Part shown: in pieces, positions 2,339-61,666 of the stretch
How the letters are laid out: every line of letters begins with the position of its first letter
Numbering within the stretch: the first letter of the stretch is position 1
Source: an uncultured virus (IMG/VR IMGVR_UViG_2660237931_000002)
Taxonomy: Duplodnaviria; Heunggongvirae; Uroviricota; Caudoviricetes
IMG/VR virus record: IMGVR_UViG_2660237931_000002
Span: 1-64,000 of that record
DNA: 64,000 nucleotides
Reading direction: 5' to 3' (one strand)
Made by a program: the position numbers and the translations under genes
The notes under the pieces: generated by a model
Seen by the model: the letters and a program-made list of their open reading frames with translations, nothing else
The model's database searches: none
What the model was told of the DNA's origin: nothing

Positions 2339-2368
2339 CGGAGCGCCGGGAGACCGGCGATAAAATTA

Positions 2369-2773: not shown

Positions 2774-2775
2774 AA

Positions 2776-3804: not shown

Positions 3805-4000
3805 CACCCTCAAATCCGTGGTTTTTGAGATAGCTCACTCAGGTGGGCTTTCATCGATACACGGGGACTAACAACAGTGATCCTTTTTAAGGCTTAGAAG
3901 CCGCTTTGCTCGCAGCATCAGCTTGAACAAACAATGATAGCTGAAGTTTTACATAACCAATGGTAGGATTTACCCATATCCTTACCAATAGGGGCGCTGT

Positions 4001-17988: not shown

Positions 17989-18155
17989 GACAAAGAGCCG
18001 TGAGCATGAATATTGATAGATATACATTCCCCAAAATGAAGAATTACATAAGATAAATCAATGGGTTGAAAATGGATACTTGAGGTAAAAAATTTACTTT
18101 AAACTGATATAATAAATAATAAAAACAATATCTTATCTGTTTTTGTGGTAGGTAT

Positions 18156-18165
18156 TGCTGCGCCA
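18156..18165 (+). other. att core in icd (phage 21-type), attP-like configuration
   Basis: TGCTGCGCCA where icd similarity begins; phage DNA on both sides. Confidence 0.8.
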
Positions 18166-18319
18166 CATGCAGTGGTTCGAAGCTGCAGACCTGATCGTCA
18201 AAGGCATGGAAGGCGCTATCGCTGCCAAGACCGTGACCTATGACTTCGAACGTCTGATGGAAGGCGCTAAACTGCTGAAATGTAGCGAGTTTGGTGACGC
18301 GATTATCGCGAACATGTAA
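18158..18319 (+). pseudogene. icd: icd 3' end (last 53 codons of isocitrate dehydrogenase), phage-carried duplication
   Basis: [53 protein letters not shown]; no 5' part. Confidence 0.95.
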
Positions 18320-31407: not shown

Positions 31408-32274
31408 GAAACTAGTTCTCCTTAAGAGGAAATCACTCAAATATGCACAGTAGTGCTGACGACAGGAGACGCATTGAACAGGCAGAAAGCATCAGCAATT
31501 TGATTGCTCTGGCGGCGAGTATCAGAACAGGCGCGCAAGTACAGAAAGCATCATTCGCGGATTAGGTTGGGGGCGAAAGGTAGTGATTGTAAAAATCAAT
31601 GCACGCTTCCTCTACCGTCAAGAGGTCGTCCCTAAGAATCATCTTAGTATTTTGCTAACATTAAAGTATAACGCGAACTTGATCTATAGATTAGGTCAGC
31701 CCAGTAATCTGAGGTGGGATAGCAATTTCAGAAAGATTTATGTTTTTGATAAATATATTTTTTTTCTTTCATCCCACGATTCACTTGTAATGATGAACAA
31801 CAAAAAAAAACAAGAAAAGATGATGTTCGATATAATATTTTGAAAAATTCCTGGATAACAATTGAATATATCTCTTGACCTGTTCCCTGTTGTTGAACAA
31901 GGCACTATTTTAATCATACCTTTGTCAAACTGTGAACTTCCGCTATTCGCTCTAAGCGGTCTTAGAGACTGTCATGGCATATTACCAGGCGCGGAAACCC
32001 TGCGAAGGTAGGGTTATCTCGCCTTTGCTGTTGAGAAAGGTAGTTTAATTTGCACCCGACATCACTCTCATTGATTAAAGCACGGAGTGGAGATTACTGC
32101 GGTCCACAGTTCTGACAAACAGTGAAAGAGAAGGCCTGCGTAAAGAAAAAAGGTGTCGCGATGCGTGATGCAATTACCTTATGACAGACCTTGCGGTGAT
32201 TTACGGCACAGGGCAGATTCCGGACGCTGTGAGCCCACTCATTCCTGCGAAGCCTGATTCTGCTGTACCTCAGG

Positions 32275-40606: not shown

Positions 40607-40950
40607 TGTATAAACGCACGGATCTGACGCTCTCCATGTTCTATGCATCCAGCGCTGATGCAGACGGGAACAAAGTGGCTACGTTGACGATGCAGGTAAT
40701 TGCAGCAGAGGTTGGAGCCGTCCAGACCAGCCAGCTGCGATGTATAACCGATAGCGCGAAGAAAAAAACGTATAGCGTAGGTGAACAATCTGTCAGTAAT
40801 GGTTCCGATCCGTTGCTGGTCGCGATTGAGAATTACTGGCGTCAGAGCACGGATGTCGGTAAGCGTACAGCGTGAACCGTCTGGTCATAATCTGAAGCAT
40901 ACGACAAAGTGGTGTCCACCAAATAAGTAGTGGGAACCAAAGTGTCAGAT

Positions 40951-41328
40951 ATGCAGAAAAATATGACTCCCGGCAGGCGTAAAGGCTGCCCTAATTATTC
41001 TCCTGAGTTTAAACAGCAACTCGTTGCTGCCTCCTGCGAACCCGGGATATCCATCTCAAAACTGGCGTTTGAAAATGGCATTAATGCCAATCTGCTCTTT
41101 AAATGGCGCCAGCAGTGGCGCGAGGGAAAGCTGCTATTACCTTCCTCTGAGAGGCCTCAGTTACTTCCTGTGACTCTCGATGCCACCGCCGTACAACCAG
41201 AACCGCCCGCTGAGGACTCAGAGCTCAGCATCAGCTGTGAGGTAACGTTCCGGCACGGGACACTCCGCCTCAACGGCACTGTCAGCGAAAAGCTTCTGAC
41301 TCTGCTGATACAGGAACTGAAGCGATGA
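40951..41328 (+). CDS. tnpA: IS66 TnpA
   Basis: YSPEFKQQLV..GINANLLFKWR HTH. Confidence 0.9.
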   Translation: MQKNMTPGRRKGCPNYSPEFKQQLVAASCEPGISISKLAFENGINANLLFKWRQQWREGKLLLPSSERPQLLPVTLDATAVQPEPPAEDSELSISCEVTFRHGTLRLNGTVSEKLLTLLIQELKR

Positions 41329-41672
41329 TCCCGCTACCAACAGGCACCAAAATCTGGCTGGTTGCCGGTATTACCGATATGAGAAACGGCTTCAACGGGC
41401 TGGCTGCAAAAGTGCAGACGGCGCTGAAAGACGAACCGATGTCCGGCCATGTCTTCATCTTCCGGGGCCGCAGCGGCAGTCAGGTTAAACTTCTGTGGTC
41501 CACCGGCGACGGGCTGTGCCTGCTGACCAAACGGCTGGAGCGCGGGCGCTTCGCCTGGCCGTCAGCTCGCGATGGCAAAGTGTTCCTGACCCCGGCGCAG
41601 CTGGCAATGCTGCTGGAAGGCATCGACTGGCGACAGCCGAAGCGGTTGCTGACCTCCCTGACCATGCTGTAG
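41325..41672 (+). CDS. tnpB: IS66 TnpB accessory protein
   Basis: TDMRNGFNGL..KRLERGRFAWP. Confidence 0.93.
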   Translation: MIPLPTGTKIWLVAGITDMRNGFNGLAAKVQTALKDEPMSGHVFIFRGRSGSQVKLLWSTGDGLCLLTKRLERGRFAWPSARDGKVFLTPAQLAMLLEGIDWRQPKRLLTSLTML

Positions 41673-41721
41673 GCTTCTTTATCCTGGTTGTCGCAGAATA
41701 AGCCTGGTAAAATGCTGGCTT

Positions 41722-43260
41722 ATGAATGACATCTCTTCTGACGACATCCTTCTGCTGAAACAGCGCCTTGCCGAACAGGAAGCGCTGAACCGTGCCCTGC
41801 TGGAAAAGCTGGCAGACCGGGAGCGCGAAATAGACCATCTGCAGGCGCAGCTGGATAAACTTCGCCGGATGAACTTCGGCAGCCGTTCTGAAAAAGTCTC
41901 CCGCCGTATCGCACAAATGGAAGCCGATCTGAACCGGCTTCAGAAAGAGAGCGATACGCTGACCGGTCGGGTGGATGACCCGGCAGTACAGCGCACTCTG
42001 CGTCAGACCCGCACCCGCAAACCGTTCCCCGAATCACTCCCCCGCGATGAAAAACGCCTGCGGCCAGCGGGTTCCTGCTGCCCGGAGTGTGGTGGTGCGC
42101 TGAGTTACCTGGGTGAGGATGCCGCTGAACAGCTGGAGCTGATGCGCAGCGCCTTCCGGGTGATCCGGACTGTACGGGAAAAACATGCCTGCACAAAATG
42201 TGATGCCATCGTGCAGGCCCCCGCGCCTTCGCGCCCCATTGAGCGGGGTATCGCCGGACCGGGGCTGATGGCCCGCGTGCTGACCTCAAAGTATGCAGAG
42301 CACACACCGCTGTATCGTCAGTCTGAAATATACGGTCGCCAGGGCGTGGAACTGAGCCGTTCACTGCTGTCGGGCTGGGTGGATGCATGCTGCCGGCTGC
42401 TGTCCCCGCTGGAGGAGGCGCTTCAGGACTATGTCCTGACTGACGGTAAACTCCATGCCGATGATACCCCGGTCCAGGTGCTGTTGCCGGGCAATAAGAA
42501 GACGAAGACCGGGCGGTTGTGGACGTATGTTCGTGATGACCGCAACGCCGGGTCAGCGCTGGCACCGGCGGTGTGGTTCGCCTACAGCCCCGACAGAAAA
42601 GGCATCCATCCGCAGACCCATCTTGCGGGGTTCAGCGGTGTGCTACAGGCGGATGCGTACGCCGGGTTCAACGAGCTGTACCGCGATGGCCGGATAACGG
42701 AAGCCGCCTGCTGGGCTCACGCCCGCCGTAAAATCCACGATGTGCACGTTCGCACGCCGTCAGCCCTGACGGAGGAAGCCCTGAAGTGTATCGGCGAACT
42801 GTATGCCGTGGAGGCGGAAATAAGAGGAATGCTGGCGGAACAACGGCTTGCTGAACGTCAGCGGAAAACGAAACCGCTGCTTAGTACCCTGGAAAGCTGG
42901 TTGCGTGAAAAAATGAAAACTCTGTCGCGACACTCGGAGCTGGCAAAGGCGTTCACGTACACCCTGAACCAGTGGCCGGCCCTGACGTACTATGCAGAAA
43001 ACGGCTGGGCCGAAGCCGATAATAACATCGCTGAAAATGCGCTGCGGATGGTCAGTCTGGGTCGTAAAAACTGGTTGTTCTTCGGCTCAGACCACGGTGG
43101 TGAGCGGGGAGCGTTGCTGTACAGTCTGATCGGGACGTGCAAACTGAACGGCGTGGATCCAGAAAGCTACCTTCGCCATGTCCTTGACGTCATAGCTGAC
43201 TGGCCGGTCAACCGGGTCAGCGAGCTGCTACCCTGGCGCATCACACTGCCAACTGAATAA
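41722..43260 (+). CDS. tnpC: IS66 transposase TnpC
   Basis: FGSRSEK, HADDTP, LQADAY, CWAHARRK, DNNIAEN. Confidence 0.95.
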   Translation: MNDISSDDILLLKQRLAEQEALNRALLEKLADREREIDHLQAQLDKLRRMNFGSRSEKVSRRIAQMEADLNRLQKESDTLTGRVDDPAVQRTLRQTRTRKPFPESLPRDEKRLRPAGSCCPECGGALSYLGEDAAEQLELMRSAFRVIRTVREKHACTKCDAIVQAPAPSRPIERGIAGPGLMARVLTSKYAEHTPLYRQSEIYGRQGVELSRSLLSGWVDACCRLLSPLEEALQDYVLTDGKLHADDTPVQVLLPGNKKTKTGRLWTYVRDDRNAGSALAPAVWFAYSPDRKGIHPQTHLAGFSGVLQADAYAGFNELYRDGRITEAACWAHARRKIHDVHVRTPSALTEEALKCIGELYAVEAEIRGMLAEQRLAERQRKTKPLLSTLESWLREKMKTLSRHSELAKAFTYTLNQWPALTYYAENGWAEADNNIAENALRMVSLGRKNWLFFGSDHGGERGALLYSLIGTCKLNGVDPESYLRHVLDVIADWPVNRVSELLPWRITLPTE

Positions 43261-43730: not shown

Positions 43731-44165
43731 ATGGCCGGAGGAATTCGATCGTCCGGTGGTGGCCGAAAACCCACTTTACCCACCGGGCAAAAAAGCAAAT
43801 TAACACGTATTGCGCCTCCTGCTGAGTTAATGGGGGAGGCGGCAATAAGAATGTGGAAGACGCAAAGCAAAATACTCATCGACCGAGGGGTGTTTGAGCT
43901 GGAGGACGCACCTTTGTTGCTGGCTTACTGCAATGCTTTTCATCTGATGCTCGAAGCCGAAAAAATGCTGGCCAGCGGACTGACCTCAGAAAGTGAAATG
44001 GGGGGGCTGAAAAAACACCCTGCAGTTAATGTCCGGAATGACTCGGTTTCCCAGCTTGCCCGCCTGGGCTCTCTGTTGGGGTTAGATCCGCTCAGTCGTC
44101 TTCGCATGACCAGCGGACAAAAGGATCCGGACGATGACGGGAATGAATTCGATGAGTTTGACTGA
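43731..44165 (+). CDS. terS: Terminase small subunit (P27 family)
   Basis: PP..L...A...W, L..YC, KKHPA, LGLDP.SR. Confidence 0.92.
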
Positions 44166-44812
44166 TGGCAACCTATCCGAACGTCAATGCAGCGAACCAG
44201 TATGCGCGGGATATCGTTGGCGGGAAGATTCTGGCGTGTCAGTTAACGATACTTGCCTGTCAGCGACATCTGGACGACCTCGAACGAGCAAAGGATCCCC
44301 ACTGGCCCTACCGCTTCGATAAAAACAAAGCAGAACGATTTCTTCGTTTTGCCCAGAAAATGCCTCATACCTCAGGGGAATGGGCCCGGCGTAAACTCCG
44401 GATTGAATTTGAAGCCTGGCAGAAGTTCGCTCTTGGCGTACCGTTTGGATGGGTACACAAGAAGACAGGCCTGCGTCGTTTCTCTGAAATCTATATCGAG
44501 GTGCCCAGAAAGAACGGGAAATCCGCTATTGCCGCTGCTGTAGGAAATTATATGTTTTGTGCAGATGGCGAGCATGGTGCAGAAGTCTATTGCGGCGCCA
44601 CGACTGAAAAACAGGCATGGAAGGTATTTTCTCCGGCGCTGCAAATGGTGAAAAAGCTGCCGGCATTGCGGCAAAAATTCTCGATAAAACCCTGGGCAAA
44701 AAAAATGACGCGCCCTGACGGTTCGGTTTTTGCGCCTGTGATCGGTGACCCGGGGGATGGTGATTCGCCATCATGCGCCATCATTGATGAATATCACGAG
44801 CATACAACATAG
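44165..44812 (+). pseudogene. terL: Terminase large subunit, 5' part, cut at Walker B by satellite
   Basis: VPRKNGKS Walker [12 protein letters not shown] then TAG supplied by the satellite. Confidence 0.95.
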
Positions 44813-44926
44813 ACATTTCAGGGAGTCAGTAGTGTTCGCCATTGTACGTTAACATGATGAATAAAAAGATTTTTTATTGTTTTCATGTTCGGATGTGATC
44901 ACATGCGTTTTCCTTGTTACGGTTCA

Positions 44927-44949
44927 CTGTGTATTGCAGTGTGTATTGC
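44927..44949 (+). promoter_or_regulatory. Putative satellite integrase arm sites (left)
   Basis: CTGTGTATTGCAGTGTGTATTGC; near-identical copy at 61538. Confidence 0.75.
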
Positions 44950-44974
44950 TTTTGTGTTTGCAGAGAGTGAATAA

Positions 44975-46210
44975 ATGGCTGCGGAAAACAAACTTAGTGA
45001 CAGGCAACTAAAGGCGCTACAGGGTAAATCGCAGGATAAGCAGCGTCTGTTCTCCGATGGTCGGGGAATGTCGGTCAGGGTGAGTAAGAATGGTGCTGTG
45101 AGCTTTGTTATGTTCTACCGATTGGGCGGCAGGGAAACATCTCCGGTTTGGTTGACGTTGGGAAAGTACCCTGACATGTCATTGAAATTGGCTCGGGAAA
45201 AACGTGATGAATGCAGAACGTGGTTAGCGGAAGGGATTGACCCGCGTCACCGTATCGGCTTAATCACAGAAGAATCACAAAGACCGGTCACCGTAAAAGA
45301 TGCACTTAAGTATTGGCTGGAGTATTACGCCAAACCTAAGCGCAGAACTTGGGAGGTCTGCGAACAACGTTTTGCCCGTTATATTTATGGTCGCCTGGGT
45401 GACGTGCCCCTAACTCTTTGTAATGCAGCAATGTGGGTAAAGTGTTTTGATGAGGTGAGAAAAACCGCTCCAGTAGCTGCCGGGCATACATTTCGAGATG
45501 TGAAGCAGGCACTCAAGTTTTGCCGGGTACGCCGTTATGCTACTTCCAACGAACTGGAGGATTTCACCGTTATGGATATGGGTGAAAGGGCGAAAAAAAG
45601 GGATCGTGTACTTACTGCTGATGAAGTGCGGGACGTTTGGTATTGGGCAAATACTGAGGAAAATAATTCAAAATTATCTCCTGTTAACCGGGTGACGCTT
45701 GTCATTTTAATGGTATTTGGATGTCGCGGACGTGAATTGCGAGAGTCACTCTGGAATGAATGGGATTTTAAAGAGTGGATTTGGACAGTGCCCAAAGAAC
45801 ACAGTAAGAATGGGCGCGAAATTATCCGCCCAATCCCCCCGCAAATCCGTCAATGGCTGGTAAATCTTCGTGCAATTGCAGAGGAGGAGGGCACAGAGCG
45901 CCTACTTAATGGTGAATTTGCAAAACAGACAGTTATGAGCACCGTAGGTAGCCGTTTTTGGCGTAAGTTCCGGCATGAAAAATCATGGTGTCTGCATGAC
46001 CTTCGCCGGGTTCTTGCCACCAATCTAAATGACATGGGGGTTGATCCTCATGTTGTCGAACAGCTCTTGGGGCATACGCTACCGGGGGTTATGGGAATTT
46101 ATAATCGTAGCCAATATCTGGCGGCAAAACTTGATGCTTTGACGAGATGGGTAGACTACCTGAATTCGTTGATCCGTTCTGATGCTAAAGAGGGAAGTCC
46201 CAATGTATAA
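44975..46210 (+). CDS. int: Satellite tyrosine integrase (P4-like arm-binding domain)
   Basis: DGRGM..RV, LTLGKYPD.SL..AR, FGCRG.E, HDLRR, LLGH, Tyr in GIYNRS. Confidence 0.95.
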   Translation: MAAENKLSDRQLKALQGKSQDKQRLFSDGRGMSVRVSKNGAVSFVMFYRLGGRETSPVWLTLGKYPDMSLKLAREKRDECRTWLAEGIDPRHRIGLITEESQRPVTVKDALKYWLEYYAKPKRRTWEVCEQRFARYIYGRLGDVPLTLCNAAMWVKCFDEVRKTAPVAAGHTFRDVKQALKFCRVRRYATSNELEDFTVMDMGERAKKRDRVLTADEVRDVWYWANTEENNSKLSPVNRVTLVILMVFGCRGRELRESLWNEWDFKEWIWTVPKEHSKNGREIIRPIPPQIRQWLVNLRAIAEEEGTERLLNGEFAKQTVMSTVGSRFWRKFRHEKSWCLHDLRRVLATNLNDMGVDPHVVEQLLGHTLPGVMGIYNRSQYLAAKLDALTRWVDYLNSLIRSDAKEGSPNV

Positions 46211-46421
46211 ATTCATGAGTAAAGCAGAACTTGAACTGATACCAGATCTGGAACGCGTTATCCGAGAACCGGAATGTTTTTGGATGACTGGTCTGCCAAA
46301 ATCTACTCGTGCTTTTATGGAGAAAAAAGGACAGTTTCCAAAGCATCTGGTGCTGGGCCCTAAAATCTGTGCCTGGCGGCTTTCTGAAGTGCAAGAATGG
46401 ATAAAGACCAGAGCACAATAA
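46203..46421 (+). CDS. alpA: AlpA-family regulator/RDF 1
   Basis: RVIREPEC..TGL..ST....K.GQFPK...LG....AWRLSEV.EW. Confidence 0.88.
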   Translation: MYKFMSKAELELIPDLERVIREPECFWMTGLPKSTRAFMEKKGQFPKHLVLGPKICAWRLSEVQEWIKTRAQ

Positions 46422-46482
46422 ACTGACACTTTTCAAACCAGACCCGCTTATTCAGGCGGGTTTTTTTATAGGATTTTTGCTA

Positions 46483-46722
46483 ATGAAAAAATTTATTGAA
46501 CCAACCCCTGAGCAACGCCGGCAGTTACTGAACGAGTATGGTGTTCCATACGACCGTATTGTTCGTGAGAAAGAACGTCGTGATATCACCTCTCTATGTA
46601 GATCGTCAGCGTGGGAGATGGAGCAGAATGAGGCGTACCCGCAGCGACGTAAAATTGGTAAAGCGGGGGCAGGTTGGCTTCTCAGTGATCTGCTCCACTG
46701 GCTGAGAAACCTTGATAGGTAA
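46483..46722 (+). CDS. alpA: AlpA-family regulator/RDF 2
   Basis: DRIVREKE...ITSL.RS..W.ME....P.R..IG....GWLLSD. Confidence 0.85.
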   Translation: MKKFIEPTPEQRRQLLNEYGVPYDRIVREKERRDITSLCRSSAWEMEQNEAYPQRRKIGKAGAGWLLSDLLHWLRNLDR

Positions 46723-46787: not shown

Positions 46788-47019
46788 ATGATCAAAAATT
46801 GTAGTTGTTGATAAAAATGGTCTCGAGTACATTCCTAACATTGACCGTATAATCCGTGAGAAAGAGTGTAGGGAACTCACTACTCTTGCGAACAGTACGC
46901 ACTGGAAGCTGGGGAGGGGAGGGAAGTTCCCTAAACGGATCAAGATCGGGGCTGCAGCAGGAGCTTATCGCCTCTCTGAAGTGCAGGCCTGGATTAGAGC
47001 AGATAACTGGATAAGTTGA
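46788..47019 (+). pseudogene. AlpA-family copy 3, frameshifted right after ATG
   Basis: ATG-A-TCA.. then SKIVVVDKNGLEYIPNIDRIIREKECRELTTL..FPKRIKIG..YRLSEVQAWI. Confidence 0.75.
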
Positions 47020-47033
47020 ATAAGGAGAATTTT

Positions 47034-47864
47034 ATGACGATGTGTGTTTTTTGGAAAGATAAAGATAATAATATTCATATAGCAACTGATTCTCGGCTAA
47101 ATAATGACTCATCGGCTCTCGATCATTGTTTGAAAATATCTAGACTTAATTGTGAAATACACGAGTGCAATGATATAAGTGGTGGTGATAAGGTTTTTAT
47201 AAAAAATATTAAGCTTGCCATTTCTTTCTGTGGCGGGTTTGTTAGTGCTTACACGATTAAAGAGAGTTTAACTGAAATACTAAATAAAATGGTCCTTGTT
47301 CCTGACTCGTCTAATATTTCAATGGATTTGATAACTGATGTGGCCTTGACGGTTTATGAGAAAGTAATAAGAGATGCAGTTCAATATTTTATCGGTAAAG
47401 TAGGAGCTTGTAATTTTTACATAGCTGGATTTTGTCCTATTTCTAATGAAGTAGAAATGTATAAGTTGGGTGTTAGAGAACATGATTCTCAGACAGGGTT
47501 TGATTGCTTCAAAGAAAAATGCTTCCAAGATACTGATTATATTATAGATGGCAGCGGTGCGGGTTTTTTAGAACAGACTGACTCATTAGATAATCATTAT
47601 CTTAAAGCGTATCGTATTAACAATCAAAAACCATTGCTAGATTTATTACTTTCTGTAATTGAAGATGAAGGTTGTGCTTCTGTTGGTGGGGCTATACAAT
47701 ACGCAAAATGTGAACATGATAATATCATTATACATGCAATGTATGATCATAAAAATGGCGCCGTGAGATATATGCGTGGTGGTGTTGATATTAATGAGTT
47801 AATTGGTGATTATGCTGCGCGTGGAGTGGTATTTGAAACAAATATGATTGGGAAATTAAGATAA
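47034..47864 (+). CDS. Proteasome beta-subunit/HslV-like Ntn threonine protease
   Basis: AAGGAG RBS, M-T start, DSR, Lys33 (mature numbering), GSG, SVGG. Confidence 0.75.
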   Translation: MTMCVFWKDKDNNIHIATDSRLNNDSSALDHCLKISRLNCEIHECNDISGGDKVFIKNIKLAISFCGGFVSAYTIKESLTEILNKMVLVPDSSNISMDLITDVALTVYEKVIRDAVQYFIGKVGACNFYIAGFCPISNEVEMYKLGVREHDSQTGFDCFKEKCFQDTDYIIDGSGAGFLEQTDSLDNHYLKAYRINNQKPLLDLLLSVIEDEGCASVGGAIQYAKCEHDNIIIHAMYDHKNGAVRYMRGGVDINELIGDYAARGVVFETNMIGKLR

Positions 47865-47865
47865 A

Positions 47866-48405
47866 ATGAAAGATATAGATGGTGTTCATAAACTTTTGGA
47901 GGTGATGAAACCTCACATGAGCAGTATTGAGAAACGTTTTGCAGAAATGAATGATATGTTTCTTGGTCTTATGAATCAACCTCACGATAATATTGGAAGG
48001 GTTTTGAAATGCCATCTTATAATTGAGCACTTTTTGACTGGTTTTCTGCATAATTATTATAAAATTGAAAGGCTTGATAATCTCAAGTTGCGTTTTGCTC
48101 AGAAAGTGGAAATTATCCCTAGAGCCGGTGAAAGTGCTTCTTTTGTTAGGCCGGGGATCATCCAATTAAATAAAATTAGAAACAAATTTAGCCATGACTT
48201 AAGTTCTAGCATCCAAAAACATGATATTTCTGCAATTTATGAAGTGCTAACTATAGCAAGAAGAAAAAGCACATTCGATGATCCGATAGAAGCAATAGAA
48301 GCATTCACACCAATTGCATGCGCTTTTCTTTCTTTACCGCCACCAGAGTTGCAAAAAGTTTTCATAGAGGCATTCACATCAATCTCAACCTACGATCCTG
48401 AATAA
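47866..48405 (+). CDS. HEPN-like (MtlR-type) protein
   Basis: HLIIE..L, F.QK, LNKIRNKFSH (R-x4-H). Confidence 0.7.
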   Translation: MKDIDGVHKLLEVMKPHMSSIEKRFAEMNDMFLGLMNQPHDNIGRVLKCHLIIEHFLTGFLHNYYKIERLDNLKLRFAQKVEIIPRAGESASFVRPGIIQLNKIRNKFSHDLSSSIQKHDISAIYEVLTIARRKSTFDDPIEAIEAFTPIACAFLSLPPPELQKVFIEAFTSISTYDPE

Positions 48406-49613: not shown

Positions 49614-49978
49614 TTAGCAACGTCAAATTCAATGAACTGGAAAAACGCTTTGATCTGCTGGTGGAGAAAGTCAACGTTCTTGAAGAAAAAGTAAGAGCGC
49701 TGACTGATAGTCAGGGCGGTGAAATCCCACCCGGTATGACTCCTGTCGCTACGCTGGCGGCTGAGTATGGCATTTCTACCAAAAAAGCGGAGGAACTGGC
49801 GAAAAATACGGGCGTTATGTTGGTTAAGCTGAAATCAGGAGGCTTTATTGTGCCTGATGAGAAATTCAGGGAAGCGGCCCGACTTGTTCTCCGTAGCGCA
49901 AAACGAAAATACGGTTCGGCCTACTGGTTTCATCCGCTGATGGGCAAATTCCAAATGAGCGGAGGGATCCCGAAGTGA
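49610..49978 (+). CDS. Hypothetical satellite protein upstream of primase
   Basis: GGAGG RBS, ATGA overlap, coiled-coil N-term. Confidence 0.7.
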   Translation: MISNVKFNELEKRFDLLVEKVNVLEEKVRALTDSQGGEIPPGMTPVATLAAEYGISTKKAEELAKNTGVMLVKLKSGGFIVPDEKFREAARLVLRSAKRKYGSAYWFHPLMGKFQMSGGIPK

Positions 49979-51777
49979 AAAATGCACCTAACGTAAAGGC
50001 GCTGCCGAAAGACAAGTTTACAGAAGCGATTATTTTCGCGGGTGCCGACGCGTGGAGTCATGCCAAAGGCTGGGAAGAGGGGTTAGGAAAGCAGATCGCG
50101 GAAGATACCACGCCTCCTGTTTATCTTGGCCCGCGGCAACTGGAGGAACTGGATAACCTGCGCATTATCGATGATGGCCGCCGAGCTGCACGGGTGTACC
50201 TAGCTGGCGATATCGAGACGTCGATGATTAGTGCCATTGGTGCCAAGCTGGCACAGGCTGGGGTACAGGAGGCAAAACTTTATAAGGGTATTCCCGATAC
50301 TCATCCGGAGGACTGGCGAGATCACCTTAATCGGATTAGGGAAGGGAAAAGCACAGTAGTAAATCTGCCAGTGACGAAAAGAGAACCAGCGCATGATGAA
50401 GTTAGCCCGGCTCTTAATCAGATGGGGGCCAGCCAGCGCGGGCAAGTGCTGCTGGCCCATTACGATGGAGACCTGGCTATTCATGCTGATTCGGACATGG
50501 TTCACCACTATAACGGTGTGATCTGGAATCCACTCCCGGATAAAGAGCTGCAACGGGCAATGGCGCAGATTTACATTGATGCTGAGGTAGCCTATTCGCA
50601 GAACGCCATCAAATCGGCGGTGGAAACCATGAAGCTGAGTCTGCCGGTGATGGGCGTAACAGCCCGCAACCTCATTGGCTTCAGCAACGGCGTATTTGAT
50701 ACCCGGACGGGGCAGTTCAGGGAGCACAGCAAAACCGACTGGTTGTTGATTGCCAGTGAACTGCCATTCAGTCCACCAGCTGAGGGGGAGACACTGGCCA
50801 GCCATGCGCCGAACTTCTGGAAGTGGTTACGCCGTTCCGTGGCCTACAACGACCGCAAAACAGACCGTGTGCTGGCGGCGCTATTTATGGTGCTGGCGAA
50901 CCGGTACGACTGGCAGCTGTTCCTTGAGGTTACGGGCCCCGGCGGTAGCGGTAAAAGCGTGATGTCTGAAATATGCACCATGCTGGCAGGCAGAGCCAAT
51001 ACTGTGGCCGCCAGTATGAAAAATCTGGAGGACGCGAGGGACAGGGCGCTGGTGGTCGGCTACTCACTGATCATCATGCCGGATATGACCCGTTACGCTG
51101 GTGATGGCGCCGGGATTAAGGCCATTACCGGCGGCGATAAGGTGTCAATCGACCCGAAACATAAAGCACCATATTCAACCCGTATTCCTGCTGTGGTACT
51201 GGCCGTAAACAACAACGCCATGACCTTCAGCGACCGCAGTGGGGGTATATCGCGCCGGCGAGTTATATTCAACTTTACGGAAGTTGTTCCGGAAAACGAG
51301 CGCGATACGATGCTGGCTGAAAAGATAGAAGGTGAGCTGGCCGTCATCATTCGCCACCTGCTGATCCGCTTTTCCAGTCAGGACGAAGCCAAACAGCTGC
51401 TGCATGAACAGCAGAAGTCAGAAGAGGCACTGGCTATCAAGCGTGAAGGTGATTCGCTGGTGGATTTCTGCGGTTATCTGATGGCGTCGGTAGTGTGTGA
51501 TGGGATGTTTATCGGCAATGCGGAGATTGTGCCATTCAGCCCGCGCAAATATCTGTATCACGCCTATCTGGCATACATGCGGGCCAATGGCCTGAGTAAG
51601 CCAGTCTCTCTGATGCGGTTTGGTACCGATATGCCAGGCGCAATGGCCGAGTACGGGAAGAAGTACGAAAAGCGGAAAACCAAGCACGGTATCAGGTCAA
51701 ACGTTACGCTACACGACGACTCAGACGACTGGATGCCGTCATGTAACAATAATTCTGAAAGTGCTGGGCTAGAGTAA
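49975..51777 (+). CDS. P4/D5-type primase-helicase (SF3)
   Basis: GFSNGVFD, GPGGSGKS, IKAITGGD, GISRRRVIF. Confidence 0.92.
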   Translation: MKNAPNVKALPKDKFTEAIIFAGADAWSHAKGWEEGLGKQIAEDTTPPVYLGPRQLEELDNLRIIDDGRRAARVYLAGDIETSMISAIGAKLAQAGVQEAKLYKGIPDTHPEDWRDHLNRIREGKSTVVNLPVTKREPAHDEVSPALNQMGASQRGQVLLAHYDGDLAIHADSDMVHHYNGVIWNPLPDKELQRAMAQIYIDAEVAYSQNAIKSAVETMKLSLPVMGVTARNLIGFSNGVFDTRTGQFREHSKTDWLLIASELPFSPPAEGETLASHAPNFWKWLRRSVAYNDRKTDRVLAALFMVLANRYDWQLFLEVTGPGGSGKSVMSEICTMLAGRANTVAASMKNLEDARDRALVVGYSLIIMPDMTRYAGDGAGIKAITGGDKVSIDPKHKAPYSTRIPAVVLAVNNNAMTFSDRSGGISRRRVIFNFTEVVPENERDTMLAEKIEGELAVIIRHLLIRFSSQDEAKQLLHEQQKSEEALAIKREGDSLVDFCGYLMASVVCDGMFIGNAEIVPFSPRKYLYHAYLAYMRANGLSKPVSLMRFGTDMPGAMAEYGKKYEKRKTKHGIRSNVTLHDDSDDWMPSCNNNSESAGLE

Positions 51778-52466: not shown

Positions 52467-53369
52467 ATGGACTGGAGTAAGATTCCTGATGAATTAAAAG
52501 GGAGATATGATTCTATTTCTGGGATTGATTATGGGTGCTTAAAAATTTCACTCCTTGAGCAAATGAATGTAAATCCTATGCCTACATCGCCTGAAGGGCA
52601 TAGTTTATCATATGAAATATTCTCAAGTGAATTTAATACGATAATGGTGGTGGCACATTTCTATGAAAATTTGTTATCTTTTGAAGACAGGCGGCAGGAG
52701 TTGCAGGGGTATAATGATTTTCAAATTAAAATTCCCGAGCTTTATTTCCAACATCCGTCATTAAACGTCATGTCATCTATTCCGCATAAAGAAAATGTAA
52801 TTATTTCTGAAGTGGTAAGGAAAACTAAGCAAAAGTTAAATTACTCGAAAGATGAATCTTTTGTTTTGAGTCAATTGCATAAACTTGAATTTATCTCGGT
52901 TTTTTCTCATTTAGAAGCATACATAGAAAGTTTGCTAGTGGAATTCATTGGGCTTGAGCGAAAAAAAGCTGCAGCAAAAGTTAGAAAGGCATCGTTGCCA
53001 GATTTAATTGCTGAGGTTTTGAGTACAATTAACCCATTGATAATTGATGTTATTAACTATTTGGATAAGGATGCGCTGCGTTATATTAGGTTCTGCTATA
53101 AATTAAGGAATTTGCATACGCACAATCTTGGGATTGTTAATGAGTACTTCTACAACGAGTGTATTAAAAATAATTACTTTGTGCATGATGTTTCTCTTGA
53201 AACAGGTGAGCCCGAACTTGAATATGCAAGAATGAATTTTGAATATTTTGATTATGTTTTTCATGTCGGGAAGGTTGTAAATTTATCTTCTATGTTGCGA
53301 CCTTTTAGACTTTTCGCTAGAGAGATTGTTTTCATCACAGAGGCATTTTGCAAAGTCGAGGGGAAGTGA
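52467..53369 (+). CDS. HEPN-domain protein, AT-rich cargo
   Basis: FISVFSHLEAYIE helix and LRNLHTHNLG (R-x4-H) motif. Confidence 0.72.
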   Translation: MDWSKIPDELKGRYDSISGIDYGCLKISLLEQMNVNPMPTSPEGHSLSYEIFSSEFNTIMVVAHFYENLLSFEDRRQELQGYNDFQIKIPELYFQHPSLNVMSSIPHKENVIISEVVRKTKQKLNYSKDESFVLSQLHKLEFISVFSHLEAYIESLLVEFIGLERKKAAAKVRKASLPDLIAEVLSTINPLIIDVINYLDKDALRYIRFCYKLRNLHTHNLGIVNEYFYNECIKNNYFVHDVSLETGEPELEYARMNFEYFDYVFHVGKVVNLSSMLRPFRLFAREIVFITEAFCKVEGK

Positions 53370-53859
53370 GGTTGAGTTTTCTGGAGTGACTGATGCGCTT
53401 AATTTTTGTTTGATGGTGCATCAGTTAAGTGACTTTGTTTTAATAATGTTGTTGGGAAGGTTGCCTTCTGAAATAAATGTACGTTTTTTGCTGTTTGATT
53501 CAAGAGAAAAATTGCGGTGATGTATGAATTTATACTGTGATTTTTCAATATATTATTGAGATTTTTTCTTACCCCACTATCCTTATCGTTGATTTCGGGG
53601 TTTATAAAAGTCAATGATAGACTTCATTAATTGTAAATTATTTGTTCATTATCTTTCATTGCTGTTCATCATCAAATACGGTTATTTACTTCATTGTTTC
53701 AATGTTTATCTTAGGGAGTGGCACTCAGACGTGAGCCGCCGCTGGCCGTTTAACCAAACTGTGCGAGATAGCCGGAGAGAGTCCTAAATAGGTTAAATGG
53801 CCATTTTCTTTTCTGCGCTGGTTTCACGTCTCAACGTTAATTGTTACGGAAACCACTCC

Positions 53860-55026
53860 ATGAAGAAATTACTCGAATTACGCCAGCAAAAAGCTGCCCT
53901 CAAAACGCAGATGCGATCCATGCTGGAGAAAGCCGACAATGAAAAGCGCAGCCTGAATGATGAAGAGGGGAAACAGTTTGACGAACTTCGCGCCCGTGCT
54001 GATACGCTTGAAGTGGAAATTACCCGCCTTGAAGCCGTTGCCAACGATGAGCGCAATCTGCCTGGTACTTCCGTAGAAGGTGAGCCAGTAAACAACGACG
54101 AACTGCGGCACTACATCATGACCGGTGATACCCGTTCTCTCTCCACGCTGGTGCAGGCTGATGGCGGCTATACCGTTATCCCTGAACTGGATAAAGAGAT
54201 CATGCGGCAGTTGCAGGATGATAGCGTGATGCGATCTATCGCGACAGTGAAGACAACCAAAACCAACGAATACCAGAAGCTGGTATCTGTGGGCGGTGCT
54301 GCCGTTAAGCATGGGGCAGAAGGTGAAGCGCGTGCAGAAACTACCACACCGAGAATGGAACGTGTCGATATCAAACTCAGCCCGATCTATGCATACCCGA
54401 AAACCACTCAGGAGATCCTCGATTTTTCCGAGGTGGATATTCTGGGTTGGTTATCTTCTGAAATCTCCGACACCTTCAGCGCTACTGAAGAAAATGATTT
54501 TGTTAACGGCGATGGTGTGAAGAAGGCTAAAGGCTTTCTGGCTTATGACCGTGTGTCCACCAGCGATAAAACCCGCCCGTTCGGTACGCTGGAGAAAATG
54601 GAAACTGCTGCTGTTAACTCAGATGGTTTGATCGACCTGCTATACAAGCTGAAAGCAAAATACCGCAAGAACGCCGTATGGGTGATGAACTCGAATACTG
54701 CGGCCACGCTTCAGAAGCTGAAAAACGATAACGGGGACTATATCTGGCGCGATCGTCTGGTCGCTGACTCTCCTGATACGCTGCTGGGCCGTCCGGTTCA
54801 GTATCTGGAAACTATGCCCGATGCGGCTCCGGGAGAAGCATTTCTGGCGGTAGGCGATTTTAAGCGTGGTTACTTCATTGTCGATCACACCACAGGCGTG
54901 CGCACCCGTCCTGACAATATCACCGAACCGGGTTTCTACAAGGTGCATACCGATAAATACCTGGGCGGCGGCGTGGTGGACTCCTGCGCCATCAAGGTGC
55001 TTGAGCTTTCCGGCTCCGGTTCCTGA
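53860..55026 (+). CDS. Satellite major capsid protein (HK97 fold with delta domain)
   Basis: Coiled-coil N-term, DGGYTV.PE, GDG..K.KG, LLGRPV, GDFKRGY. Confidence 0.95.
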   Translation: MKKLLELRQQKAALKTQMRSMLEKADNEKRSLNDEEGKQFDELRARADTLEVEITRLEAVANDERNLPGTSVEGEPVNNDELRHYIMTGDTRSLSTLVQADGGYTVIPELDKEIMRQLQDDSVMRSIATVKTTKTNEYQKLVSVGGAAVKHGAEGEARAETTTPRMERVDIKLSPIYAYPKTTQEILDFSEVDILGWLSSEISDTFSATEENDFVNGDGVKKAKGFLAYDRVSTSDKTRPFGTLEKMETAAVNSDGLIDLLYKLKAKYRKNAVWVMNSNTAATLQKLKNDNGDYIWRDRLVADSPDTLLGRPVQYLETMPDAAPGEAFLAVGDFKRGYFIVDHTTGVRTRPDNITEPGFYKVHTDKYLGGGVVDSCAIKVLELSGSGS

Positions 55027-55076
55027 TCTGACGTTTAAGGGGCTTCGGCTCCTTTTGCCCTCTGTGGAGTCCAGTA

Positions 55077-55637
55077 ATGAAAACAATCGATTTTGAAATC
55101 CGAACCTCTGAGCTGAGCGCCAGCAACAAAAAGCTGGTGGGCTATGCCGTGCGCTGGAACAGCCTGTCAGAAGTTATCTGGGATGAGTTCCGCGAGCAGT
55201 TTGTACCGGGGGCGTTTAAAGACAGCCTGGCATCCGGTAGCGATGTGCGCGCACTGTACGAGCATAACTATACCCAACTGCTGGGGCGCACTAAATCCGG
55301 CACGCTGGTGCTGTCCGAGGACGATACCGGGCTGCGCTTTGAGCTTACCCCACCGAATACCCAGCTTGGGAATGATGTGCTGGAGCTGGTGGAACGTGGG
55401 GATATTTCCGGCATGAGTTTTGGTTTCCGTGCGCTGAAAGAGGCATGGGATATCGGCCAGTCTCCGTACCTCCGTACTGTAATAGCTGCCGACCTGCGGG
55501 AAATCACAGTTACGTCTATGCCTGCTTATCCTGAATCTGGTGTGGAAATCGCGCACCGTTCGCTTTTCTCCCAACATCCTGAACTGCGTCGCGCTGGCGA
55601 TAACCGTCGCCGCTGGGCTGAATTAGCGGGGCTTTGA
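55077..55637 (+). CDS. Prohead protease (HK97 family)
   Basis: GYA, F.E.F.PGAF, LYEHN, GMSFGF, EIT.T..PAYP. Confidence 0.93.
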   Translation: MKTIDFEIRTSELSASNKKLVGYAVRWNSLSEVIWDEFREQFVPGAFKDSLASGSDVRALYEHNYTQLLGRTKSGTLVLSEDDTGLRFELTPPNTQLGNDVLELVERGDISGMSFGFRALKEAWDIGQSPYLRTVIAADLREITVTSMPAYPESGVEIAHRSLFSQHPELRRAGDNRRRWAELAGL

Positions 55638-55638
55638 T

Positions 55639-56874
55639 ATGTGGAATATCTGGCCGTTTGGCCGTAAGTCTGAACCCTCCGAGCAGCGCAGCATGACCAT
55701 TGATGAGTTTCTGGCGATGGCAGGGATTCCAAATACCGTATCAGGCGAGTACGTGTCTGCGGGTACTGCGGAATCTCTGCCGGCGGTGATGAATGCTGTT
55801 TCCGTTATCAGTGAAGCTGTGGCGACAATGCCCTGTTACCTCTATCGGGTACGAAATGATAAAGGACGAGAGGCGCGGGAGTGGCTGAGCAATCACCCGG
55901 TGGATTTTCTCCTGAACGAACAGCCTAACGACTGCCAGACGCCTTACCAGTTTAAACGCACGATGATGCGCCACTGCCTGCTGAATGGTAACGCCTATGC
56001 GGTGATCCAGTGGGGCCGTGACGGCCAGCCGCAATCCCTGCATCCGTATGCGCCGGGGGCGGTTGTTCCCGAACGTATTGGCCAGCATAAGTACAAATAC
56101 ACCGTTACTGAACCGTTTACGGGGGCTGTGCACACCTACTTGCAGGAAGAGATGCTGCACCTGCGTTACTCCACCGACGATGGCTTTCTGGGGCGTTCGC
56201 CGATCACCGTCTGCCGTGAGGCGTTGGGGCTGGGCCTCGCTCAGCAGCGCCACGGTGCCAGCATTATGAAAGATGGCATGATGGCGGCTGGCGTGGTCAC
56301 TACTGCTGAATGGCTCGACAGCTTAAAGGGCAAACAAGCTCTGGACGCACTGGAACGCTACAAAGGTGCCAGAAACGCCGGGAAAACGCCGATCCTTGAA
56401 GGTGGCATGGACTATAAGCAGCTTGGCATGAGCAATCAGGATGCTGAGTGGCTGGCCTCCCGTCGCTTCACCATTGAAGATATTGCCCGCATGTTTAACG
56501 TTTCTCCTATCTTTCTGCAGGAATACAGCAACAGCACCTACAGCAATTTTAGTGAGGCGAGCCGCGCCTTTCTTACCATGACAATGCGCCCGTGGCTGGC
56601 GAACTTTGAGCAGCAGATTAAATCCGCGTTGCTGGTGGCATCGCCTGTACCCGGAATCCGTTATCAGGTGGAGTTCGACTCTGCCGATCTTCTTCGAGCC
56701 ACTCCAACCGAACGTTACGCAACTTATGAGCGCGGTATCAAGAACGGGATCATGAACCCGAACGAAGCCCGCGAACGGGAAGGGATGCCACCGCGTGAAG
56801 GTGGCGACGAATACAGTCAGGCATGGAAGCAGGAAGTGAAGGTCAGTAAGGACAACAAGGACGGTGACGAATGA
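55639..56874 (+). CDS. Portal protein (HK97 family)
   Basis: LL..QPN..QT...F, LNGNAY, G.SP, IARMFNV, NPNEARERE. Confidence 0.95.
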   Translation: MWNIWPFGRKSEPSEQRSMTIDEFLAMAGIPNTVSGEYVSAGTAESLPAVMNAVSVISEAVATMPCYLYRVRNDKGREAREWLSNHPVDFLLNEQPNDCQTPYQFKRTMMRHCLLNGNAYAVIQWGRDGQPQSLHPYAPGAVVPERIGQHKYKYTVTEPFTGAVHTYLQEEMLHLRYSTDDGFLGRSPITVCREALGLGLAQQRHGASIMKDGMMAAGVVTTAEWLDSLKGKQALDALERYKGARNAGKTPILEGGMDYKQLGMSNQDAEWLASRRFTIEDIARMFNVSPIFLQEYSNSTYSNFSEASRAFLTMTMRPWLANFEQQIKSALLVASPVPGIRYQVEFDSADLLRATPTERYATYERGIKNGIMNPNEAREREGMPPREGGDEYSQAWKQEVKVSKDNKDGDE

Positions 56875-57209
56875 GAGCCGGAAAGATGAAACGCCGCGTC
56901 ACTTTTCAGAAGTCAGAATCTCACCGTGATCAGATGGGGCAGGTTATCTCTGTGTGGTCTGACCTTGCCACCGTCTGGGCTGAAATCCGCGCTATAAGTG
57001 GGCGTGAGCGTATGTCTTCAGGGGGGCTCTACTCCGAAGCCACTGTACGAATCTGGACGCGCTACCGCGACGATATCACCACCGCAAACCGCATTTTGTA
57101 CCGCTCGCCAAATGTCCGGGGGCAGGTTTACGGCATTGTGGCCGTCATTCCTGATGTGGATCACACCCGGCTTGAGCTGCTGTGCAAGGGAGGCATTTTC
57201 AATGAATGA
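56871..57209 (+). CDS. Head closure / tail adaptor
   Basis: MRAGKM.RRVTFQ, VWAEIRAISGRE. Confidence 0.9.
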   Translation: MRAGKMKRRVTFQKSESHRDQMGQVISVWSDLATVWAEIRAISGRERMSSGGLYSEATVRIWTRYRDDITTANRILYRSPNVRGQVYGIVAVIPDVDHTRLELLCKGGIFNE

Positions 57210-57495
57210 GTTAATTGGTCTGGAAGAAGCAAAGCTGCATTGCCGTATTGATGATGATTATGAAGACACGCTGATACAGGCGTACATCGATGCGGCGCTG
57301 GAGGTTTGCCAGAAGCATATCGGCAAGCGGTTTGATAACGGGCTGGAGTTTACGCCAGCTATCAAGATTGGCTGTCTGATGTACGTATCTCAGTTGTACG
57401 AGTACCGCACGATGATTGGTGATACTGACGCCAAAGAGATACCGATGGCTGTCTCTGCGTTGTGGTCTGTCTATCGTGATGTGGGGGTGTACTGA
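57202..57495 (+). CDS. Head-tail connector
   Basis: LEEAKLHCRID...ED.LI..YI.AA, LYEYR. Confidence 0.9.
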   Translation: MNELIGLEEAKLHCRIDDDYEDTLIQAYIDAALEVCQKHIGKRFDNGLEFTPAIKIGCLMYVSQLYEYRTMIGDTDAKEIPMAVSALWSVYRDVGVY

Positions 57496-57938
57496 TGCCG
57501 TGGCAACCACTACACCGATGCACTGAGCCGGGATGTAATAAAAGGGTGAAGTCTGGCAAGTGTGACGAGCATAAGCGGGATGCCCGCCGACAAAGCGACA
57601 GCCGAAGAGGTACGCGAACAGAGCGTGGTTACTCCAACCGCTGGGGCGAATACCGTCGTCATTTTCTGAAAGCTAATCCGCTGTGTGTCCATTGTCTTAA
57701 GGCTGACGTCTATACATCGGCAACTATCGTCGATCACATCATCCCTATCGAGGGTGAAGCCGATGTGCTGTTCTGGCCTGCCAGTAATCACCAGTCGTTA
57801 TGTGCTGCCTGTCATGGACGGAAGACAACCACAACAGACCCGGTGACGAAGCAGCAGCGTAAAGCCGGTAAGTTCCGTGAGCAGGAAGAAGCAGCATGTC
57901 ATCGCACCGACTGGATCTATGAGGCAAACAATGACTGA
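57495..57938 (+). CDS. HNH endonuclease (packaging)
   Basis: RGYS.RW, PLCVHC, VDHIIP, NHQSLC..CH..KT. Confidence 0.92.
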   Translation: MPWQPLHRCTEPGCNKRVKSGKCDEHKRDARRQSDSRRGTRTERGYSNRWGEYRRHFLKANPLCVHCLKADVYTSATIVDHIIPIEGEADVLFWPASNHQSLCAACHGRKTTTTDPVTKQQRKAGKFREQEEAACHRTDWIYEANND

Positions 57939-58083
57939 GCAGGAACAGCAGCGGCTGATTAGTGGGCTGATAAAGCAGCGTGAGTCATGGCAACCAGCCA
58001 GACAGAGGGCGTTTAAGAAGCCCGCAGCAAAGCGCATGAGCCCGCGTGACCGGGAGCTTATGGAATGCTTTCGCAACCGCTGA
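57931..58083 (+). CDS. Small hypothetical protein
   Basis: GAGG RBS, 50 aa between HNH and cos. Confidence 0.55.
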   Translation: MTEQEQQRLISGLIKQRESWQPARQRAFKKPAAKRMSPRDRELMECFRNR

Positions 58084-58094
58084 CAGGCCGAATG

Positions 58095-58180
58095 GACGGG
58101 GTGGGGGAGGTTTTCAGGACAAGCCCCTCTCAGCGAGGAACCACCTGCCCCCTCAAATTTTTGCGCTCGGTAATTTTTTT
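58095..58180 (+). other. Probable satellite cos region
   Basis: GGGGTGGGGGAGG run followed by T-rich tracts just before terS; differs from helper cos. Confidence 0.55.
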
Positions 58181-58213
58181 GAAAATAAATCGCGATGGAA
58201 ACGAGAAATTTTT

Positions 58214-58570
58214 ATGGCAAGACCACCAAAACCGCCAGCTTACCTTGATGAGCTAGCCGCGCAGCAGTGGAAAGCAAAGGCGAAGCAACTGGCGGAGCGC
58301 GGGGATCTGACTCCCGCCGACTGGAATAACCTTGAGCTTTTTTGCGTCAACTATTCGTTGTACCGCAAAGCCGTGGAAGACCTTGCCAGCCGTGGGTTCA
58401 GCATTATTAACAGCCAGGGCGGCGAGAGCCGGAATCCGGCGCTGAGTGCAAAGGCCGATGCTGAAAAAATCATGATTAAAATGTCGTCGCTGCTGGGCTT
58501 TGATCCGGTAAGCCGCCGTCGTAACCCTGTAGAAATGGAAGAGGAAGACGAGCTTGACCGTCTGGGATGA
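58214..58570 (+). CDS. terS: Satellite terminase small subunit (P27 family)
   Basis: PKPPAYL...A..QW, NPAL, LGFDPVSR. Confidence 0.92.
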   Translation: MARPPKPPAYLDELAAQQWKAKAKQLAERGDLTPADWNNLELFCVNYSLYRKAVEDLASRGFSIINSQGGESRNPALSAKADAEKIMIKMSSLLGFDPVSRRRNPVEMEEEDELDRLG

Positions 58571-61537: not shown

Positions 61538-61560
61538 CTGTGTATTGCTGTGTGTATTGC
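61538..61560 (+). promoter_or_regulatory. Putative satellite integrase arm sites (right)
   Basis: CTGTGTATTGCTGTGTGTATTGC, 22/23 match to 44927-44949. Confidence 0.75.
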
Positions 61561-61666
61561 ACAAAGGACAAAACAAAGAGCTTGAATGAAATTCTTCCCT
61601 TTTTAATCAATGGATTAAAAATGCTTGCAATAAATATCACGAACATACTACTGATGCGCTTTACAC

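Follow-up and report, generated by a model that had tools for sequence, protein, structure and literature searches.

What has cut short the large terminase gene (terL) of a Klebsiella prophage in the middle of its ATPase domain, and why does the DNA beyond the cut read, for four codons, like the terL sequence that it displaces? The window, by which we mean the whole stretch of DNA analysed (64 kb, from the start of a provirus record of 93,166 bases), holds this gene in separate parts. The 5′ fragment is an ORF on the + strand at 44165–44812, which matches the Pfam TerL_ATPase profile at positions 2–134 of 178 and encodes 211 native residues followed by H-T-T and a stop from satellite DNA, in keeping with the original prediction that no replacement 3′ end is supplied. 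It carries what we take to be the Walker A and Walker B motifs, with the insertion point directly after the codons of the latter (IIDE|YHEH), and the remainder of the ATPase domain and all of the nuclease domain are missing from it. The gene resumes on the + strand at 61643–61666 (ACATACTACTGATGCGCTTTACAC, placed from the sequence and by comparison with intact terL), up to an IS insertion, and its 3′ part, containing the nuclease domain (Pfam TerL_nuclease), occupies 63010–64000 on the same strand and continues to 64068 of the record.

The surrounding genes belong to a prophage that extends from an integrase gene (18437–19564, − strand) to tail genes near 90 kb. Upstream of the terL fragment are a prophage HNH gene, an IS66 element, terS, lysis genes, replication genes and this integrase; downstream of the 3′ part are prophage portal, protease, capsid, and tail genes. 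The terS/terL DNA of the left flank is 99.7% identical to that of Klebsiella phage ST846-OXA48phi9.1. The integrase gene adjoins a 3′ fragment of icd at 18152–18319, and because tail, tail-fibre and invertase genes of another prophage lie to the left of the icd fragment, from position 1 to ~16300, two prophages seem to stand in tandem at icd. The early region of the prophage also encodes, on the − strand at 25516–31440, a 1974-aa protein with DUF4011, AAA_11/AAA_12 helicase and MTES_1575 nuclease domains; it matches the PADLOC models PDC-S37 (1181.6 bits) and Hhe and is probably the product of a prophage-borne defence gene.

The insertion is bounded by a left arm, GAATATCACGAGCATACAACATAG, at 44789–44812 and a right arm, AAATATCACGAACATACTACTGAT, at 61632–61655, which share the 10-bp string AATATCACGA. 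This string is found exactly twice in the window, at 44790–44799 and 61633–61642, both on the + strand. Its mean count in shuffled versions of the window is 0.17, with 2 of 100 shuffles reaching two matches, and a 10-bp repeat alone would be weak evidence for an att pair. The pair is proven by an exact empty site in MK416021.1 together with the same junction in related records. In MK416021.1 (ST846-OXA48phi9.1), the intact terL consists of the sequence to the left of attL, one copy of the core, and the sequence to the right of attR, with no base gained or lost. Contigs from the RNA libraries of two other runs pass through position 44805 and continue into ...TACTGATGCGCTTTACAC, an uninterrupted terL, and a DNA run, X7, crosses the attL junction and then, from 46562, shows another satellite interior. 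Excision joints were absent from the contigs of four runs, which, as assembled contigs, are uninformative on excision. Positions 44790–44812 are the attL junction of a 16.8-kb satellite inside the terL gene of a Klebsiella prophage, and the quoted arms, the 10-bp core, the reading frame, the synonymous third-position changes and the TAG are all present as first described.

Between attL and attR, the int, alpA, primase and late genes of the satellite all lie on the + strand, as do both parts of terL. A tyrosine integrase of 411 aa (44975–46210, + strand; Pfam Arm-DNA-bind_3 and Phage_integrase) is followed by two AlpA-family genes at 46182–46421 and 46477–46722 (46182–46722, + strand; Pfam Phage_AlpA for both), a primase/helicase (49975–51777, + strand; Pfam D5_N, DUF5906 and Pox_D5), and a late zone (53797–60215, + strand) in which Pfam identifies a major capsid protein, S78 protease, portal, head completion protein, connector, HNH, TerS, and TerL. 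The head and packaging genes are not a spare copy of those of the helper, since their proteins are 30–36% identical to the helper counterparts. Next to attR, on the − strand at 60253–61320, is an accessory gene that resembles the anti-phage defence protein PD-T4-7 (PADLOC PDLC04066, E = 3.6e-33). No tail or lysis genes were found among the 21 satellite ORFs scanned, 8 of which match no Pfam family. Scans for promoters (30 found versus 26.0 expected) and terminators (21 versus 18.2) are at background, the latter including a single good + strand hairpin at 46440–46463, after the first alpA.

The order of zones (Int, two AlpA, D5-type primase, late zone) is that published for helper-embedded PICIs (HE-PICIs), whose zones run integration (Int, AlpA), Bro, replication and late; the slot of the Bro zone is taken here by ORFs at 47016–48405 without a Pfam family, whose only matches are to PHROGs of unknown function. 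By eye, an R-x4-H motif was spotted in each of two ORFs without a Pfam or PADLOC family, at 47866–48405 (RNKFSH) and 52467–53369 (RNLHTH), which may be of the kind known from HEPN nucleases; the first of these ORFs pairs with a 282-aa ORF at 47016–47864 (phrog_16034, unknown function).

Both att arms of the satellite carry a doubled TGTATTGC motif, at 44930–44949 (+ strand) in the P′ arm, 131 bp past the last core base, and at 61541–61560 (+ strand) in the P arm, 82 bp ahead of that base in its own copy of the core, these being 2 matches in the window against 0.00 expected. A doubled motif, tgTGTATTGCantgTGTATTGCa, has been described 81 ± 2 bp upstream and 132 ± 2 bp downstream of the attP centre in HE-PICIs only, as far as the available text of that study goes (Tommasini, Mageeney & Williams, NAR Genom Bioinform 2023, PMC10111431; preprint 10.1101/2022.07.18.500453). 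Measured from the right end of the core, the distances here (82 + 131 = 213) give the same sum as the published 81 + 132; if the motif is taken in a 23-nt form, it lies 81 and 129 bp from that end, and the measuring point of the paper may differ.

The same study, cited here from the accessible portions of the article, its supplement and the preprint, mapped 491 HE-PICIs to 14 sites in cognates of the late genes A, B, C, E, V, T, H, L, and J of lambda, and reports many PICIs at fis and hpt (PMC10111431). Its Supplementary File 1 lists a site A_Terminase_1_132 in K. pneumoniae, with the att identity 'aatatcacga', elements of 16 kb, and helpers such as Kpn1498.71.icd. This string, which is that of the identity block at attL, is counted 68 times in the supplement, and every row shown gives it as the att identity of A_Terminase_1_132. 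The gene profile given for Salmonella A132 elements is Int, AlpA, AlpA ... Primase ... HNH, Terminase_4, TerL_nuclease (PMC10111431). According to the text available, the attP of HE-PICIs brings no replacement sequence for the target gene (PMC10111431), and the splitting of the target is understood as regulated gene integrity serving the satellite (PMC10111431; preprint 10.1101/2022.07.18.500453).

The satellite is almost certainly a member of this published site group, A:Terminase_1:132. In the rows and text at hand, it agrees with the group in its 10-bp att identity and target gene, in the profile position of the break (TerL_ATPase 134 here versus Terminase_1 132 in the paper), and in host genus, approximate size, icd-prophage helper, doubled TGTATTGC motif with its spacing, and gene order. 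The differences are without substance: a size of 16.8 kb versus 15.6–15.8 kb for the listed Kpn rows, and a helper that is further broken by IS66 and IS903-like elements.

The closest relatives of the integrase use the same target. Eight IMG/VR loci encode integrases 94–100% identical to that of the satellite; a TerL fragment ending DEYHEHTT* lies directly upstream in seven of them, and the eighth record starts at the core. All seven close relatives with readable flanks sit at the same terL codon, within the DEYHEH codons, on at least four terL nucleotide alleles, and this collection of att sites upholds the original prediction that terL is the dedicated target of the integrase lineage. The phage side of attL varies among the relatives (GATGAATATCAC, GACGAGTATCAC, GACGAATATCAC, GATGAATATCAT); the satellite side, GCATACAACATAG, is identical in 8/8 loci, and the sequence past the TAG splits into two diverged subgroups. 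Right junctions were recovered in four of the five records searched, with two terL right arms, ACATACTACT and GCATCCCACA. A point against the explanation favoured below comes from two occupied loci, L008 and L010, where the phage side of attL carries CAT in place of CAC; the attR of the L008 record (L013) has CAC, so that 'GA' alone is identical between the two differences. In complete genomes of E. coli, nothing resembling window positions 44300–45300 was found.

The satellite might instead have landed in terL by accident, as a secondary site, with its usual home elsewhere. Off-target insertions of HE-PICIs are on record, 28 of them in the available portion of the survey (PMC10111431; preprint 10.1101/2022.07.18.500453), whose supplement also has an entry named Kpn7159.16.A132_DUF2345 (PMC10111431). 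Such an accident is, however, very unlikely here, given the position of all seven readable relatives at one terL codon on different alleles, the 68 occurrences of aatatcacga in that supplement, and the existence of an exact empty site. We give virtually no credence to a second possibility, homologous recombination between the terL of the satellite and that of the helper in place of site-specific integration. Both genes do carry a DEYH motif, but the satellite terL lies at 58554–60215, at neither end of the element, and its motif DNA reads TACCACCT where the core has TATCACGA. Moreover, arm motifs at set distances flank the junctions, which adjoin the integrase, and the insertion is exact to the base.

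We now turn to the resemblance of the arms beyond the core. In the frame of terL, the P′ arm of the satellite reads (GA)G CAT ACA ACA TAG at 44800–44812 (+ strand). Over the ten post-core bases, attL and attR differ at 44800 (G/A), 44806 (A/T), and 44809 (A/T), which are the third positions of the E, T and T codons, and both arms read E-H-T-T, followed in the left arm by TAG; 7/10 bases are identical (binomial P = 0.0035 at a 25% background). Further right, at positions 11–20, agreement is 4/10, which is background. To the left of the core, where the satellite arm has AAT AAA and terL has GAT GAA (N-K instead of D-E), the differences are non-synonymous and at first positions, and 2/20 bases agree, again background.

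Compared in register, attL and attR (hence attP and attB) share a 22-bp similarity block at 44787–44808 (+ strand) that is identical at 19 of 22 positions, with mismatches at 44789, 44800 and 44806. Its midpoint is 44797.5, and the motif spacing in the available part of the published description puts the attP centre at the same point. The att similarity beyond the identity block is asymmetric, extending ~9 bases rightward, and places the likely crossover centre near 44798; these two points go beyond the published paper.

A length of ~22 bp is usual for the core site of tyrosine recombinases such as the lambda-type integrases, with two half-sites around an overlap. We lean toward the view that the apparent synonymous recoding represents the right half of a ~22-bp core recombination site common to attP and attB. 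The 10-bp identity block would then comprise the left half-site and the overlap region, and GCATACAACA would be the right half-site of the satellite (C′), which would have to resemble that of the phage (B′, ACATACTACT) because the same integrase has to bind both. As attB is coding DNA, mismatches would fall at wobble positions: attP would follow its terL target, and between terL alleles these positions alone would be free to drift. Indeed, attP appears to track local terL alleles, since the Salmonella A132 identity blocks visible in the published material (tccatgagcaca, tgcatgagcaca and ataccatga) can be read as those H-E-H codons with different bases at the wobble positions. In the terL that the satellite itself carries, the corresponding stretch is GATGAGTACCACCTTCAC, so this gene is not a target. 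Counting against the half-site reading, an overlap centred at 44798 would take in the G/A mismatch at 44800, and tyrosine recombinases usually disfavour a mismatch in the overlap region.

The original prediction explained the same bases by descent, with attP taken from a piece of terL and the P′ arm a coding relic recoded at synonymous sites. Consistent with this, all three differences in the ten bases right of the core fall at third positions and are synonymous, and T-T matches the commonest class of empty sites: DEYHEHTT is found at 57 of the 77 that are empty in a set of the best 80 of 273 related terL loci, and the others have Q, I, D or P at the seventh residue. The Salmonella members, as far as the published rows available go, carry other synonymous versions of the same codons, and HE-PICIs are reported to capture neighbouring late genes (preprint 10.1101/2022.07.18.500453, available portion). 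To the left of the core, however, N-K stands for D-E and only 2/20 bases agree, the similarity on the right is gone after ~10 bases, and no terL-like stretch extends beyond the length of a core site. The satellite's own terL, 36% identical in protein, is unlike attP at the homologous place. Random placement would put 3/3 differences at third positions about 1 time in 27, and the pattern is expected anyway if attP merely matches a coding target. We consider capture of a terL allele unlikely: a similarity of ~22 bp (44787–44808), with a non-synonymous left arm and background beyond, does not show that attP derives from terL. In the weak sense that attP seems to mirror terL codons, the sequences may lend the idea some support.

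On the preferred reading of a shared half-site, the TAG four codons past the junction would be incidental. We likewise gave the early TAG no weight as a sign of design, as other site groups run 9 to ~20 codons into satellite DNA before a stop and an early stop is common by chance.

As a whole, the locus is best explained, and with good probability, as the attL of an A:132 HE-PICI whose arm is a recombination half-site and which packages itself. The P4/PICI-type tyrosine integrase (44975–46210) would have recombined attP with a ~22-bp terL site formed by the Y-H-E-H-T-T codons just past the Walker B 'IIDE'. By splitting terL, the integrated satellite would block packaging of the helper while building and filling capsids of its own, and because it has its own capsid, portal, HNH, TerS and TerL, it would depend on the helper for induction, lysis and tails only. 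Its co-orientation with the late operon could let helper replication and late transcription run through the satellite, a read-through that is proposed in the accessible part of the paper. A group of self-packaging satellites at A132 would fit a strategy in which the helper loses its packaging enzyme but its tails stay available, a point that may not be in print.

Precise excision would rebuild terL. The predicted inactivation of the gene accordingly stands for as long as the satellite is integrated and not beyond, as the intact terL of MK416021.1 is what excision would restore; for 11capE, precise excision after composite replication was demonstrated by experiment (preprint 10.1101/2022.07.18.500453, available portion). 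That such elements are released on induction is hinted at by vB_KppS-Ant, which came from an induced lysate according to its source note.

The remaining TerL stub could also have a function. The fragment of 214 residues keeps the N-terminal region together with Walker A and B and lacks the C-motif and the nuclease domain. It might bind the helper's TerS or portal and act as a dominant negative on terminase made from excised copies, while the satellite packages itself and takes helper tails. We hold this to be improbable; if true, the conserved early stop and the site just past Walker B would be selected features, and the element would be a capsid-forming PICI that is helper-embedded, a link not found in the literature searched.

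In this record, excision of the satellite would not restore terL, because an IS903-like insertion 24 bp after attR makes a second break in the gene. This IS903-like (IS5-family) element (61667–62996, − strand; DDE_Tnp_1) is 1056 bp long, has 17-bp terminal inverted repeats and encodes a 322-aa DDE transposase, and it is joined to an inverted copy of ~274–278 bp of its own left end. Element and partial copy are flanked, within terL, by a 9-bp duplication, GCTTTACAC, of which intact terL has one copy. A further element, of the IS66 family (HTH_Tnp_1, TnpB_IS66 and a 512-aa DDE_Tnp_IS66 transposase), lies at 40930–43260, between the prophage HNH gene and terS. With its IS66 and IS903-like insertions, the helper looks decayed, a state noted for many helpers in the portions of the survey available (PMC10111431; preprint 10.1101/2022.07.18.500453).

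Could a helper escape by changing the site? A catalytic motif was originally predicted to be hard for the helper to mutate away, and the terL alleles make this a weak argument. In the best 80 of 273 related terL loci, 3 of them occupied and 77 empty, the peptide DEYHEH is kept in 80/80, and the core DNA varies at TAT/TAC, CAC/CAT, and GAA/GAG, the next residue being T, Q, I, D, or P. The empty sites of this sample read TATCACGA in 64 of 77 cases and TACCACGA, TATCATGA or TACCATGA in the other 13, which carry synonymous core changes. Judged by their spelling, these are candidate escape variants. The low occupancy (3/80) and the 13/77 synonymous core variants bear on how easily helpers escape, and in this they go beyond the published paper.

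In a wider search, an alignment of 16 integrases as the query fetched 42 loci from species-representative genomes and 80 from IMG/VR; a scan of the species-representative genomes with the single integrase had found no relative. The 122 loci were grouped by the gene upstream of int, and those outside the groups named here are unassigned. A TerL fragment precedes int in 21, with the break near the start of the nuclease domain in 3/3 tested with Pfam (profile positions 2–61 to 2–67). In 47 loci, int follows ...GYVKPKH/Y, the major capsid gene cut after Phage_cap_E positions 1–78 of 329 (4/4 tested). Smaller groups use a tail-tube gene (2/122; Phage_TTP_13 positions 2–52 of 137), the minor tail protein T gene after the G chaperone (2/122, with a third probable), the 3′ end of fis (14/122) and a position downstream of an EamA transporter gene (2/122). 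The doubled TGTATTGC motif stands ahead of int in loci from the terL, capsid E and tail-tube groups and in 0/14 of the fis-site loci.

A quick IQ-TREE analysis of 83 distinct integrases joins the A132 group in one branch (SH-aLRT 100), sister to a tail-tube-site integrase (96). In the same midpoint-rooted tree, which was built without the sequences of the paper, the capsid-E group falls beside the fis group, away from the other late-gene groups, and the published single HE clade, with a subclade for each site, was not reproduced. Klebsiella phage P12620-1 (106 kb) has an integrase that is 47.8% identical.

Several of these loci deserve mention in their own right. IMG genome 2836755666 has four terL-site satellites (L085–L088) and one tail-tube-site satellite (L065) in four IMG/VR records, with L065 and L087 on one record. 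They recall Arsenophonus nasoniae, named HE-PICI champion in the paper, whose four elements the available text assigns to the portal site. In Xenorhabdus and Yersinia, related integrases lie behind the EamA transporter gene (L026 and L062), and L026 may be an off-target HE-PICI, because the doubled motif is present. A Xenorhabdus group (L043–L050, L057, and L063) occupies a non-coding site.

How, then, does this locus compare with known systems? A satellite in terL is real but already known. Its site, att core and arm motif have all been published, as have the missing replacement and the reading as regulated gene integrity, so that nothing here amounts to a new kind of system. A satellite embedded in the terminase gene of its helper was nonetheless found from sequence alone, where the phenomenon took a dedicated study to describe.

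The founding HE-PICI, 11capE (E:Phage_cap_E:80) of E. coli NRG857c, resembles it, in the description available, in its integrase family, its placement, in the same orientation, within a late gene of an icd prophage, its 10-bp identity block, the absence of a replacement sequence, and a target homologue of its own that does not resemble the att site. 11capE inserts into the major capsid gene, the site also seen in 47 of the loci surveyed here, rather than terL. It also has no terS and is presumed to use the cos apparatus of its helper, whereas the present satellite has its own HNH, TerS and TerL.

In gene content, the satellite is closer to the capsid-forming PICIs (cf-PICIs; prototype EcCIEDL933; preprint 10.1101/2022.09.08.507074, available portion), which carry capsid, protease, portal, connectors, HNH, TerS, and TerL; as in these, no tail or lysis genes were found in the satellite ORFs scanned. 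The description of cf-PICIs in that text calls for chromosomal att sites never occupied by prophages, a length of 10–15 kb, and a divergent regulator pair next to int (10.1101/2022.09.08.507074). The present element measures 16.8 kb, has its two alpA genes in one orientation downstream of int, and sits in a prophage gene. Judging from its genes, the satellite would work like a cf-PICI but is not filed as one, and in the literature searched, HE-PICI and cf-PICI are not linked by name. A further relative, vB_KppS-Ant (16.5 kb, 'induced prophage'), has 83.6% DNA identity over 46% of the satellite and a different integrase. In vB_KppS-Ant (L217, LR881103.1), a 765-aa gene past terL at 2036–4333 is annotated as a tape measure protein, an odd annotation in a genome without other tail genes; its slot is that of the PD-T4-7-like gene in the present satellite.

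Integration of lambdoid or e14-type elements in icd is likewise site-specific and within a protein-coding gene, and there attP brings a replacement 3′ end, so that the gene stays functional (PMC10111431; preprint 10.1101/2022.07.18.500453, available portions). In terL, by contrast, four codons and a stop are all that is supplied, and the contrast with icd originally drawn from this window is a fair one, with the icd 3′ fragment lying beside the prophage integrase. The comparison made by the paper itself, in the text available, is with regulated gene integrity elements, which split sporulation or repair genes that precise excision rebuilds. Here it is a gene of another mobile element that is split, and the satellite, not the cell, would be served by when it is repaired.
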